The notes under the pieces were generated by a model. The model did no database searches. It was not told where the DNA came from and saw only the letters and a program-made list of their open reading frames with translations. Below are positions 1,760 to 61,775 of a stretch of 64,000 nucleotides of DNA, piece after piece. This DNA comes from Eledone cirrhosa (Eukaryota), in NCBI GenBank assembly GCA_964016885.1, contig OZ024759.1, forward strand, positions 15,376,001 to 15,440,000, given 5' to 3'. Every line of letters begins with the position of its first letter. Positions within the stretch are counted from its first letter, which is position 1. The position numbers and the translations under genes were made by a program.

Positions 1760-2700
1760 ATATACATACATACATACATACAGGTATATAAATTTGTGTG
1801 GATGTGTGTCTGTATTTGTGCAGAGACAGTATATGATAAAGTTATATCTGTGTATATATATATATATATATATATATATATACAGGTAGGTAGGTAGGTA
1901 GGTAGGTAGGTAGGTAGGTAGGTGTGTGTGTGTGTGTGTGTGTGTGTGTGTGTGTGTGTGTGTGTGTGTGTGTGTGTTTGTGTGTTTGTGCAGAGACAGT
2001 ATATGATAAAGTTATATCTGTATATATACATACAAGTATATATATTTGTGCGTCTGTGTGTGTGTGAGTGAGTGTATTTGTGCAGAAACAGTATATGATA
2101 AAGTTATAACTGTATATAAAGTTATATCTGTATATATATATATACATACAGGTATATATATTTGTGCGGGTGTGTGTGAGTGTATTTGTGCAGAAACAGT
2201 ATATGATAAAGTTATATCTGTATATAAAGTTATATCTGTATATAAAGTTATATCTGTATATATACATGCAGGTATATTTATTTGTGCGGGTGTGTGTGTG
2301 TGTGAGTGTATTTGTGCAGAGTCAGTATATGATAAAGTTATATCTCTATATATATACAACGAAGGAAATGTGGAAAGGAACCAGGTGGACCATAACGCAC
2401 CAAAGTACTCAATACTTGAGGTAGTAGAGTGGGTAATAGGAACCAGTAAGACCCCGACAGCTGAGCTCAAGCCGTTTCGACGGCTAATTCTGGACCCAGA
2501 ATTAGCCGTCGAAACGGCTTGTGCTCAGCTGTCGGGGTCTTACTGGTTCCTATATATATATACATACAGGTATATATATGTGTTCGTGTGTGTGTGTGTG
2601 TGTGTGTGTGTGTTCGTGTGTGTGTGTGTGTGTGTGTATGAGAGTGAGTGTATTTGTGCATAGACAATATATGATAAAGTTGTATCTGTATATATAAAGA
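1760..2700. repeat. Degenerate minisatellite (core GTATTTGTGCAGAGACAGTATATGATAAAGTTATATCTG, ~6 copies) interleaved with (GT)n/(GGTA)n
   Basis: Core visible at ~1812, 1982, 2074, 2182, 2308, 2650. Confidence 0.85.
2358..2553. mobile_element. Fold-back element family C (copies also at 26422-26627, 43103-43281, 53210-53270, 61167-61361, 61402-61571)
   Basis: Shared AACGAAGGAAATGTGG...GGAACCAGTAAGACCCCGAC head. ~58-bp inverted arms 2436-2493/2496-2553. Contains a hammerhead-like 3' half GAAA-CGGCT..AGCYG-TC-GGGGTC. Flanked by (TA)n. Confidence 0.85.
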
Positions 2701-3312
2701 CATAAATTTAACATATTCTTCAATAGCTTAGCGAACAACTTAATATATATCTTAATTAGTTTCAATACGATGGCTAATGATATGCAAATTACTGTCCTAT
2801 TCAGGATAATTCTATAAGTGACAGGGTTTGTAATGACCGCAATTACCTATTTACTTGAGTGTGTTTAGATATTATAAACGCCTTCAGTTAAAAACCCAAT
2901 TATACTTTAAAACAGTTAAAGGTATTTTGGCTATTTTTCAATTTGTCTAACATATTTAAATCTCGATGCATTGAAATTAAATAAAGTTATACACATGTAT
3001 ACTAAGTATCAGTTAATTCTATTCTGTGTATATATAATTCTATTCTGTGTATATACAGATATATATGTATATACATGTTGATATACAGGTACACATATAT
3101 ATATATATATATTAATAATAATAAATGTGAAGACTAAAGTCCAAAGAGGGATCGATAAAGATAAATATATATCAAATATATAAGAACCATAGAGCAATTA
3201 TTTATTATTATTTAGTCTGCTATTTTAATATATATATATATATATATATATATATATATATATATATATATATATATATATATAATATATATATAATAAT
3301 ATATATATATAA

Positions 3313-4173
3313 TCTATATATATAAAACTGTGGTTGTCTGTCTGTCTATCGATTTTTGGCACACATCTCCTCTTAGAATCTCTCACGGAATTGCACCGAA
3401 ATTACTATACTTGTACATTGAGCCCTAGCGAAGACATCGGAAAAAAGAAATTTCAAATTGACCCACCCTATGTGACGAAATCGAATATAATGTATCGATT
3501 TTTGAGCGTAAGTTATCAGTTATTTCCCTTTGTTCTGTTTACATTGAGCGTCTTACGTAAAAAATTACGCTGGCTTTAACAGTTGTCGAGCCAGCAAAAT
3601 ATTGACCTGCAAAATTCATCAGTTCGAACACTAAGCTTCCGTTTTGCTTCATTTCCATTTAAAAGCATTTTAAAACAATATTTTTACTTGAAAACAAGTC
3701 TATTTAAAGACTACGTAAAACAAGCAAATATTTCGTCGTTAGGCGTGCAGACAGACAGTCGTGCAGAGAGGTGATATAGGCGTGCAGACAGACAGTCGTG
3801 CAGAGAGGTGATATAGGCGTGCAGACAGACAGTCGTGCAGAGAGGTGATATAGGCGTGCAGACAGACATAACTGATAATTTGGTTACGCTAATGTTTTTC
3901 TCTGCGTTGCAGTGTTTACATTTTCGATCTTTGTTAATAAATAACCAGTGCAGTTTCTATCCCCAGCATCCTCTTTTGTTATAACATTCTGGTTATCGTT
4001 ATGTTTTCTTAACTTCATAAGGCATATTGTTGGTTGAGGGAATATTAATCAAAAACACCACATGCAAGTCTGCACAGTAGACACTACAGTTTTTAAGCCA
4101 AGAAAGAAACTTAACATTGTAACTTTAACACAGCTACTGAGCGATCCCGAGCAACGCCGGGCTTTACTGCTAG
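3313..4173 (+). mobile_element. Non-autonomous Helitron-like element
   Basis: Starts A|TC (tctatatatataaaa). Ends with GC hairpin CCCGAGCAACGCCGGG then CTAG|T. Internal 37-bp minisatellite. Confidence 0.8.
3741..3868. repeat. 37-bp tandem repeat (~3.5 copies) inside the Helitron
   Basis: AGGCGTGCAGACAGACAGTCGTGCAGAGAGGTGATAT at 3741, 3778, 3815, partial 3852. Confidence 0.95.
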
Positions 4174-4557
4174 TATATTATAAAAACAGATTAAAGTTTA
4201 AGCAAAGAATCGCCGTTAACGCGATCTTGTGAAACTAAAAAAAAATAATCTGTGGACGCAGAATTAAATATTTTCAAACAATGTATGTCATTAAACTGCC
4301 TCCAGTGGCACGGCTCCAGTTCGGCAAGTCAGGAGCTGCGGGGACTGTGGAGTTACCCCTTAGTTGTTATCAATCCCATGTCTGCTCTGGAACGGAGTAG
4401 TAGTACCTGTTAGGGCCCCGTGTATGGGTTAAATAATTACCTTACTTGAGTGACGTCGGTAAGATATTATCAGCCATTGAAAAGAAACATGATCTCGGGA
4501 AATTTTAACAGCGCTATATGTAAAAAGGAGTTAAATCATGAAATAGCTACAAAAGAT

Positions 4558-4593
4558 TCTTAATGTTTCGGACAATAGTTCTTCATCCGAAAA
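4558..4593 (-). ncRNA. Degenerate hammerhead motif
   Basis: Minus strand TTTT-CGGATGA-A-GAAC(tatt)GTCC-GAAA-CATT-AAGA. Core mutated. Confidence 0.5.
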
Positions 4594-58529: not shown

Positions 58530-58864
58530 TATATATATATATATATATATAAATATATATAAATATATATATATATAAATATATATATATATAAATATAT
58601 ATATATATATAAATATATATATATATATATAAATATATATATATATAAATATATATATATATAAATATATATATATATAAATATATATATATATAAATAT
58701 ATATATATAAATATATATATATACATATATAAATAAATATACATATATATATATATACATATATAAATAAATATACATATATATATATACATATATAAAT
58801 AAATATACATATATATATATATACATATATAAATAAATATTTATATATATATAATTATTAATGA

Positions 58865-59622
58865 TACTATTTATGGTTATGTATATACTAAAACTGTTTA
58901 TAGTTATATATATTTTAAACCCTAAACAGTGAAGGTCAGTAATTTATTACTACCTTGTTACCAGTAAGATAAATAGCTCAATGTAATGACATCAGTTGTT
59001 CTACAGAGCAGTTATATAGAATTCACAAGAATCAAAACTATGTTCAAAGCATTTATTCACTTACAATTGTTTCATCCAAACCAAGGCTTGGAGTCTTCGA
59101 AGCATTTTTCAATGTTTGTACACATAATTGACATCCTTTCCAACGCAAGAGACATAAAGATACATATATATATATTGATGTACAGTGGAGTGACATATAT
59201 TATATTATATTATTTCTGTATAGCAATTCAAATTCAAAATCAAAATCACATTAAAACAAAATCAAAACAAAATTAAAATACAATCGGCAGTTAACATAGA
59301 TAATGCGAGAGGATAGTTTGTTAGTCAGATGTAGTAGTTAGTTTAGTTATTGTATGCGTTAGTTACACGTGGGGCATGCATGTGTGTCTCATGTATATAT
59401 GATTATTGTGCGGCAGGGTGTTACATGTAATAGAAGCACTTTAAGCGGGTAAGTAAGTACATCAATATATATATATGTATCTGTATGTCTCTTGCGTTGG
59501 AAATCAGGTCGATTATGTGTACAAACATTGAAAAATGTTCCGAAGACTCGAAGCCTAGGTGTGGATGAAAAAATTGTAAGTGAATAAATGCTTTGAACAT
59601 AGCTTTGATTCTTGTGCATTCC
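58865..59622. mobile_element. Diverged pLTR relative forming a fold-back (arms ~59020-59180 / ~59458-59622) with two degenerate HHRs
   Basis: Collinear similarity to the pLTR end (TACTATTTATGGTTATGTA..TTACCAGTAAG..TACAGAGCAGTTATA). Cores TCGAAGA (minus) and CCGAAGA (plus). Confidence 0.8.
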
Positions 59623-60299
59623 ATATATATATATATATATAAATAAATATACATATATATAAATACGTATATAAATAAATATACATATATATATATACAT
59701 ATATAAATAAATATACATATATATATACATATATAAATAAATATACATATATATATACATATATAAATAAATATACATATATATATACATATATAAATAA
59801 ATATACATATATATATACATATATAAATAAATATACATATATATATATATACATATATAAATAAATATACATATATATATATACATATATAAATAAATAT
59901 ACATATATATATACATATATAAATAAATATACATATATATATATATACATATATACATATATATATATACATATATAAATAAATATACATATATATATAT
60001 ATACATATATAAATAAATATACATATATATATATACATATATAAATAAATATACATATATATATATACATATATATATATATAAATAAATACATATATAT
60101 ATACATATATATATACATATATATATACATATATATATATATACATATATATATACATATATATATACATATATAAATACATATATCCATATATATATAT
60201 ATATACATACATATATACATACACATATATATATATACCTTAGACGATCGACTTTCGTCAAATCGGACCTACGAAACAATGTTTCCGTCGGTCTTTCCA

Positions 60300-60455
60300 G
60301 TTGCTAGTACTATCTATCGGTCGCAACTCCGGGTAGAAGGAACAACGTGAAATAAAGTGTCTTGCCCAAGGACATAACGCATCGCCCGGTCCACGAATCG
60401 AACTCACAACCTCAAGATTGTGAATCCAAATCTCTAACCACTCAGCCACACACCT
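60300..60455 (-). mobile_element. SINE family 2: tRNA head + CORE-like domain
   Basis: Minus strand TGGCTGAGTGG (A box), GAGTTCGATTC (B box), GTCCTTGGGCAAGACACTT resembling the CORE/MIR domain. Confidence 0.8.
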
Positions 60456-61775
60456 TCACATACATGTATATATACATATATACACATACATATATATATA
60501 CTTACATATATAGATATATATACATACATATATATATATACTTACATATATACATATATATACATATATATATACATATATATATATACATACATATATA
60601 CATATATATATATATACATATATACATACATATATACATACATATATATATATATATATATATATATATATATATATATATACATATATATATATATATA
60701 TATATATACATATATATATATACACATATATATATATATACATATATATATATATATATATATATATATATATATACATACATATATATATACACATATA
60801 TATATATATATACACATATATATATATATATATATATATATATACATACATATATATATACACATATATATATATATATATATATATATATATATATATA
60901 CATACATATATATATATATATATATATATATATATACACATATATATATATGTATATACATACATATATATATATATGCATATATATATATATATATATA
61001 TTTATATATATAGTAGTAATAATAATAAATATGAAGACTAAAATCCAAATAGGGCTCGATAAGGATAAATATATATCAAAGAGGGAAAGCAGCGATAATT
61101 TGCTTAAACTTTAATCTGTTATTTTAATATATATATATATATATATATATATATATATATATATATAACGAAGGAAATGTGGTAAGGAACCAGGTGGACC
61201 ATAACGCACCAAAGTACTCAATACTTAGGGTAGTAGAGTGGGTAATAGGAACAAGTAAGACCCCGACGGCTGAGCTCAAGCCGTTTCGACGGCTAATTCT
61301 GGACTAGAATTAGCCGTCGAAACGGCTTGAGCTCAGCCGTTGGGGTCTTACTTGTTCCTATATATATATATATATATATATATATATACGTATATATAAA
61401 TAACGCAGGAAGTGTGGTAATGTACCAGATTGACCATAACGCACCAGAGTACTCAATACTTAGGCCAGTAGTGTGGGTAATATGAAAATGGTCACGGTAG
61501 AGCTCAAGCCGTCCAGAAATAGCCGTCGACTCGGCATGAGCTCTAACGTCGTGTTTTGACCATTTTCCTATATGTATTCGTTAGCCTCATATCAAGACGG
61601 TAATAAGTTACCGGCGGCATATTTGTATACTTACATAAAAAGATCGTACTTTTGCATGGAGATCTGATGATGTTACTTGGAGACTTTAAGGATATAACCA
61701 TTACATAACTCTGCCATCGAAATATATATAATGCAATAAAACAATTATGTATAAGTAATCCAGTCTTAAGAACAT

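Follow-up and report, generated by a model that had tools for sequence, protein, structure and literature searches.

Introduction

Insertions of Penelope-like elements (PLEs) have been described with an inverted, 5′-truncated copy and a tail on one side only, and Hydra and Naiad elements are targeted to (TA)n (PMC8557442, which leaves open the origin of the tandem and inverted structures and the role of the hammerhead ribozyme). Here we analyse inverted structures (fold-backs) in a 64-kb stretch of the 3.0-Gb genome of Eledone cirrhosa (64,000 nt; assembly GCA_964016885.1, contig OZ024759.1, labelled C20, positions 15,376,001–15,440,000), hereafter the window, and in a sample of the same genome. 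A preliminary description of the window had listed 12 such structures and had proposed as a general rule that their hammerhead-sense strands point outward. This polarity rule is the already published footprint of endonuclease-bearing (EN+) PLEs, here measured at 38 outward to 0 inward; head-to-head had been called the most frequent PLE arrangement (PMC3846280), and the rule is not new. We read the fold-backs as 5′-truncated PLE ends lying head to head between TA runs, likely made at insertion from two separately primed cDNAs, and we give this reading a probability of roughly 0.6.

Results

Outward polarity of fold-backs

The window is AT-rich, with TA arrays throughout, and 29% of it was masked as simple repeats. 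Self-comparison of the repeat-masked window recovered the listed inverted structures, which belong to families F1 to F7 and to a family built from a 310-nt unit:

2358–2553: F1 palindrome; tailed arm minus (2358–2493), tailless arm plus (2496–2553); hammerhead 3′ half; arms 57/58 identical; inside a 108-bp tandem repeat
5439–9947: retrozyme-like head-to-head array of the 310-nt hammerhead unit; 7.1 minus-strand and 7.4 plus-strand units; tail of ~30 nt on the right arm
10236–10561: F6 palindrome; tailed arm left
15364–15558: F4 palindrome; tailless arm left, tailed arm right
25926–26381: F2 palindrome (the structure at 26017); tailed arm left; hammerhead core in both arms, strict match 26274–26338, plus
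26422–26627: F1 palindrome; tailed arm left
27682–28646: F3 inverted pair; tailed arm left; 399-nt spacer; complete hammerheads 27879–27936 (minus) and 28538–28595 (plus)
40650–40890: old F2-type fold-back; complete hammerhead in the left arm, 40695–40760, minus; right arm broken off
43103–43278: F1 palindrome; left arm with an internal deletion
45205–45693: F5 palindrome; tailed arm left; axis at 45531, just 5′ of the core
58858–59622: F7 inverted pair; tailed arm left
61167–61358: F1 palindrome; tailed arm left

All 12 were present at or near their reported positions. In each, the left arm has the hammerhead sense on the minus strand and the right arm has it on the plus strand, so that every one is head to head. 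The orientation was read from a complete motif, a half motif or homology. Complete hammerheads, as defined by a strict type I descriptor, occur on both arms only in the 310-nt array at 5439–9947 (seven minus, seven plus) and at 27833–28641, and on one arm only in the structures at 26017 and 40650. The F1 copies, the F6 palindrome and the right arm of the structure at 15364 carry only the GAAA..UH half; the deletion in the left arm at 43103 removed the hammerhead half from that arm, and no complete hammerhead was present even in the longer F6 copies examined. At 58865 the cores are degenerate and orientation was taken from 76% identity to the pseudo-long terminal repeat (pLTR) of the adjacent Penelope element. 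The structure at 40650 has a right arm that is 76% alike and lacks a terminal (TA)n. The structures had been described as unrelated in sequence, a description that does not hold, since the 12 fall into eight families (F1 at 2358, 26422, 43103 and 61167; F2 at 26017 and 40650) and several families share a tail motif.

The genome was sampled as 117 evenly spaced 10-kb stretches (1.17 Mb, small chromosomes over-represented). The descriptor gave 23 matches in the window and 49 in the sample, 72 in all, against none in reversed sequences; the motifs are treated here as predicted self-cleaving ribozymes. Rfam at gathering scores returned no hammerhead match, and its E-value mode was unusable, with output flooded by TA repeats matching miRNA models. 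Fold-backs were defined by arms of at least 25 nt, identity of at least 75%, non-repetitive sequence and a spacer of at most 500 nt; the main set (n=115) had cases resembling short interspersed elements (SINEs) removed and no TA run at the axis. Homology to hammerhead-bearing copies (library rows H57, a doubtful hit, and H45, a redundant F2-type copy, were omitted) oriented 38 of the 115 outward and none inward, leaving 77 unoriented; by our own grouping the 38 are spread over ~11 families. A library-free scan for the GAAA-stem III-UH half hammerhead found 29 outward, 3 inward, 1 both and 82 without the motif (p=2.6e-6), and in one of the three inward calls the family tail motif nevertheless points outward. 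The outward excess is above chance across the genome sample, and the polarity rule covers the orientable third of fold-backs (38/115).

By homology, inward pairs were confined to arms spaced by TA. Where the spacer contained a TA run (48 sample cases), 4 pairs pointed outward and 3 inward, while 2 were ambiguous and 39 unoriented; in the window, the F2-type ends at 40055–40111 and 40657–40711 face inward and are read as two separate insertions. SINE-like repeats, named from their appearance and used as a control, gave 9 outward and 5 inward (SINE pair counts beyond 500 nt are non-independent and were not used). No inverted partner lay within 1.5 kb of 38 of the 49 complete hammerheads in the sample; a partner lay upstream of 9 and downstream of 3.

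Both flanks of the fold-backs are TA runs, with medians of 30 and 36 nt (n=101), inside which a target-site duplication (TSD) is not readable. A search for empty sites gave 11 nominal matches among the 101, one of them clearly informative. Insertion at TA runs, as previously suggested, is borne out by the F1 copy at 2358, which sits in a tandem repeat whose empty units carry a short TA run.

The fold-backs are ends of Penelope-like elements

The fold-backs are 5′-truncated pLTR ends of PLEs. F1 is the pLTR directly before a 786-codon frame with reverse transcriptase (RT) and GIY-YIG regions (locus L311) and Hydra-clade motifs. Long F5 copies are preceded on their own strand by a GIY-YIG-like region, an RT and GIY-YIG parent is linked to F4 at one locus, and F7 is linked through its pLTR (76% alike) to a frame in the window:

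53386–58529, minus: Penelope-like element, partial tandem with two direct pLTRs; hammerheads 53590–53636 and 57762–57808; no inverted arm
55053–57551, minus: 832-codon open frame with RT motifs (YRDD), CxCX5C linker and C-terminal GIY-YIG-type motif

Pfam and PDB gave no match for the 832-codon frame; the Atlas clusters nearest to it include GIY-YIG- and RT-bearing ones. The motifs of the two frames agree with the Hydra clade of C-terminal EN+ PLEs; Nematis had also been considered and was dropped after comparison with the published clade description. A partial tandem with pLTRs is seen both at 53386–58529 and in L311. L311:989-7985 also holds a large head-to-head F1 structure, both arms of which continue into the reading frame of the element.

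F1 is abundant, with ~8000 exact tail-junction matches in a genome-wide pattern search. Its long copies have a complete hammerhead with a U3-A8 core, in which stems I–III fold; such core variants are tolerated in hammerheads. Looking upstream of the F1 half for a canonical core yielded only 177 mixed matches. Each family has two fixed 3′ ends with the tail between them. One end lies at most 15 nt from TA and the other at least 25 nt away in 28 of 44 oriented fold-backs, and in short-read contigs both F1 3′ ends are joined to TA (the best run is possibly from the assembly's own sample). No RNA run was listed for the single stretch searched.

Otherwise dissimilar families (F1, F2, F3, F7 and others) share a TTGAGT(A/G)CT-like motif in their tails, for example at 2358–2436, 25926–26020 and 27682–27833. 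Next to fold-backs it was found in 18 of 115 sample and 5 of 12 window cases, every time on the outward strand, with a background of 0.047 per kb per strand; the motif is a candidate signal for the RT. Among fold-backs that have no motif, 23 of 68 show a one-sided extension between TA runs (e.g., L042, L049, L075, L096, L097, L102, L112, L120), and hammerhead-less fold-backs of this form are possibly ends of ribozyme-less PLEs.

Head-to-head partners and the 310-nt arrays

The arms had been described as unequal, and they are: one carries a tail that the other is without. Starting from tailed arms, a head-to-head partner ending at the inner site was found at 52 of 70 F1 loci and a tail-to-tail partner at none; these 70 are the first of the ~8000 tail-junction matches, all on contig C1. 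Head-to-head partners were found at 16 of 30 F3 loci and 7 of 30 F5 loci.

These ends bear on a DNA-level origin, in which the fold-backs would be MITE-like (miniature inverted-repeat transposable element) DNA transposons or solo copies duplicated in inverse orientation following breakage at (TA)n cruciforms. Fixed outer ends would fit such an origin, and exact inverted duplications centred on a TA run do exist (L104:698-1281, L144:8849-9113). All 52 F1 partners, however, end at one site even though the tail holds other TAT words, and the direct link to RT and GIY-YIG frames speaks for a retroelement. Nor do the structures have the equal terminal inverted repeats and conserved interior of a MITE, since the arms differ by the tail and the centres vary from copy to copy, in agreement with the earlier view that they are unlike MITEs. 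A DNA-level origin is largely refuted, and we regard it as very improbable. The two TA-centred duplications, one of which includes flanking non-element sequence, could each be a DNA-level event or an assembly artefact.

The 310-nt unit forms tandem arrays in which each unit has a type I hammerhead, low GC and no reading frame; 1068 exact tailed ends beside TA were found genome-wide. Of 30 arrays, 13 exceeded the fetched stretch; among the remaining 17, 9 were head to head by script, which underestimates partner lengths, and 5 more by eye, with none tail to tail. In the array at 5439–9947 the arms are identical over 2207 of 2207 nt, and no short-read contig bridges the axis, an absence that is evidence neither way. 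The identical 2.2-kb arms would be compatible with chimeric fold-back reads in the assembly. Most arms, in contrast, differ by 2–24%, outward polarity goes with the ribozyme, the same F1 zone is where a contig of 60 nt from a different organism's run switches strand, and other 310-nt arrays share the layout; an assembly artefact is the least probable explanation considered here.

Junctions and the mechanism of inversion

In the proposed mechanism, the GIY-YIG endonuclease of the element would cut a (TA)n site on both strands, and each cut end would prime reverse transcription on sense RNA. One cDNA would start at the outer site, giving the tailed arm, and the other at the inner site, giving the tailless arm. 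Both would run towards the RNA 5′ end, which would usually be set by a promoter within the pLTR and sometimes by a ribozyme cut or a break, and the two cDNA ends would then be trimmed and joined bluntly or through 1–4 nt of microhomology; a template switch between the two cDNA ends may be an alternative to this last step. If both primers are 3′ ends of the target and both templates are sense, the RNA 3′ ends would therefore face the flanks, which is the polarity rule. A Penelope protein studied in vitro was found to cut both target strands, to extend both, and to start at two sites that mark the limits of the tail (PMC11167929). The earlier suggestion of one shared, Penelope-linked process behind the fold-backs is supported. 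The route that it favoured, snap-back of a single cDNA, fits few of the junctions.

Snap-back would have a tail-primed cDNA fold, copy itself back to the inner site and be cut or joined there, with later deletions at the axis blurring the loop. This geometry demands that the tailed arm extend 5′ by at least 3 nt plus the overlap beyond the tailless arm, and only 8 of 51 F1 junctions fit it; three of the rows were misparsed, and a recount of L188 and L238 gives 10 of 52. The other 43 of the 51 depart from it through a loop shorter than 3 nt, through inserted letters or because the tailless arm is the longer one. The tailed arm reached further 5′ in 22 junctions, the tailless arm in 21, and the two were equal in 8 (medians 54 and 54, p=0.79). 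In nine the tailless arm was more than 5 nt longer and therefore was not templated by the tailed cDNA. Fifteen junctions were blunt and 17 had a 1-nt overlap; some carried short inserts copied from nearby sequence, which are typical of end-joining repair.

The centres vary between copies, whereas the two arms of a copy share subfamily letters (by eye), and for that reason the palindromes were likely made per insertion. F1 arm ends cluster 51–62 nt before the inner end (84 of 122 by our count), and F1 solo copies and short-read contig depth stop in the same zone. This limit coincides with an initiator-like word in hammerhead loop II that has a TATA-like box 25 nt before it, and a similar box precedes the common 5′ ends of F3, F6 and the family at 14799. 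From these sequence features the F1 arm limit may mark a promoter inside the pLTR, and F1 copies would then have half hammerheads because the promoter sits within loop II. Since arms end where solo copies end, little appears to have been deleted, which counts against snap-back with later axis deletions.

A second stopping point was seen in very short F1 palindromes, of which 239 were found and the first 50 tallied by hand. In 12 of the 50, the predicted ribozyme cut is the exact starting point of both arms and the letters separating them are non-parental (a single A/T in 7); a symmetric case with an insert at any other position occurred once. Another 11 were perfect palindromes at the predicted cut, which are ambiguous, as a CG overlap gives the same result. 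Four identical short F3 palindromes at ~2.2-kb spacing were also noted within a larger tandem repeat (G000:C253:58048-64680).

Arms that both end at the ribozyme cut with 0–1 nt between them leave snap-back no loop. The matched arms within a locus, the correlated arm lengths and the fitting minority of junctions are on its side, as is the ascription of the tail to endonuclease resolution of an intermediate (PMC8557442); we judge snap-back unlikely. Self-priming on antisense RNA, proposed in PMC3846280, would also account for arms that match, ends that are fixed and centres deleted on either side, as would reverse transcription of a palindromic read-through RNA if the RT skipped the tip of the hairpin. 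These routes give no reason for centres at a sense-strand ribozyme cut or behind sense TATA-like boxes in several families, and solo sense copies end at the same place, so that they appear improbable.

Several observations weigh against two separately primed cDNAs or limit that reading. Two thirds of the sampled fold-backs (77/115) could not be oriented. A link to an RT frame was not found for F2, F3, F6 or the 310-nt unit; four long F3 copies had no RT frame within ~7 kb upstream. The 8 of 51 (or 10 of 52) F1 junctions do match snap-back, and post-insertion deletions at the axis could erase a snap-back loop and lengthen either arm. Arm lengths are correlated within loci (Spearman 0.25 in F1, 0.50 in F3 and 0.93 in F5), which fits a shared RNA end and equally fits symmetric trimming. 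Both arms start at the cut in only 1 of 50 F4 and 1 of 37 F3 palindromes (hand tallies), where centres instead favour the palindromic stem III (17/50 and 10/37), a position also obtainable by slippage, and no pile-up at the cut was seen in the 310-nt arrays; the junctions of F2 proved too rich in AT to be read. Stem III is a hairpin in F1 and minimal palindromic in the other families; the latter type cleaves better as a dimer (PMC7229834), and this difference may account for the cut pile-up in F1. Ribozyme cleavage is, finally, dispensable in vitro (PMC11167929).

With these points taken into account, the junction counts lean towards two-primer synthesis over snap-back, and the F1 junctions suggest that ribozyme-cut RNA was sometimes the template. 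A fuller scheme, in which synthesis from the two cut ends begins at two fixed start sites and runs to a common RNA 5′ end (set by the pLTR promoter, or by the ribozyme cut where the hammerhead can fold as a monomer), after which the two cDNAs are end-joined, seems to us evenly balanced between right and wrong. If true, it would explain inverted pLTRs and a one-sided tail in one step and would provide in vivo evidence for a PLE hammerhead cleaving template RNA.

Other features of the window

Three fold-backs or head-to-head pairs overlooked in the preliminary description, and the inward pair, complete the inverted structures:

14799–14972: fold-back; hairpin 14799–14902, its plus arm running into a complete hammerhead at 14906–14972, outward
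20515–20794: fold-back with a one-sided extension; hammerhead motif searched for and not found; unorientable
22217–22354: head-to-head pair with a TA run at its axis, formed by the 5′ part of an F2-type element
40055–40711: two F2-type ends facing inward (tail to tail), with a TA array between them

Solo ends of hammerhead families, having no inverted partner, lie at 25165–25234, 49184–49355, 53213–53270 and 61384–61570, and an older F1-like copy adjoins the palindrome at 61167. A diverged relative of the 310-nt unit (74–82%) occupies 38075–38413. A 91-nt unit is repeated in tandem 18 times at 32904–34544, where the hammerhead descriptor had no match. The long CAC/CAA-rich array at 40993–42754, with open frames rich in Thr, His or Pro, is probably a simple repeat. 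Broken RT frames of the long interspersed element (LINE) type (Pfam RVT_1) lie on opposite strands at 35300–37700 and 49750–50600, and a 560-nt repeat is present in inverted orientation at 38528–39087 and 47670–48229.

Discussion

Extrapolated from 38 oriented fold-backs in 1.17 Mb, tens of thousands of MITE-looking hairpins in this genome would be retroelement stubs, a point of use in genome annotation. Thousands of young junctions per family make the origin of inversion and the role of the hammerhead testable by counting. The added value of the present data is mechanistic, as the counts point towards two-primer synthesis and, in one family, towards ribozyme-cut RNA as template. In LINE-1 twin priming, both ends of a target cut likewise prime on RNA; that process inverts different parts of the RNA, whereas here both arms repeat the same part. 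Neither a genome-wide orientation count nor a two-primer model for PLE inversions was found in the literature searched, whose coverage took in few subscription papers.

Published EN+ PLE insertions have the same head-to-head layout, 5′ truncation and tail at one end only, the same hammerhead in the pLTR, junction palindromes with microhomology, and TSDs masked by microsatellite targets (PMC8557442, PMC3846280). The insertions described here differ in being mostly pLTR stubs of 100–500 nt at very high density, and their tails are ~30–165 nt long, compared with the 30–40 nt previously described. As in the Hydra clade of PMC8557442, both frames (window and L311) have DKT, a CxCX5C linker, one Cys in the GIY-YIG core and a C-terminal EN, with an RW(R) word where RWK is described; hammerheads, (TA)n insertion and the absence of CCHH are also held in common. 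Points of difference are the size of the window element (5.1 kb including the partial tandem) and the variant hammerhead cores (C at position 4, and U3-A8 in F1).

The 310-nt unit resembles animal non-LTR retrozymes (PMC7229834; bioRxiv 10.64898/2026.07.22.740005), which are likewise frameless tandems with type I hammerheads and low GC, but the array here is two-armed with a PLE-type tail; the word 'inverted' is absent from the main text of PMC7229834. Comparable in mechanism is the Poseidon element PAc in vitro (PMC11167929), where the RT likewise has two start sites, one on each side of the tail, where cutting and extension affect both target strands, and where targets are AT-rich. In the accessible text of that study inverted copies are not modelled and ribozyme cleavage is not needed, whereas the F1 junctions analysed here suggest that cleaved RNA is sometimes the template.

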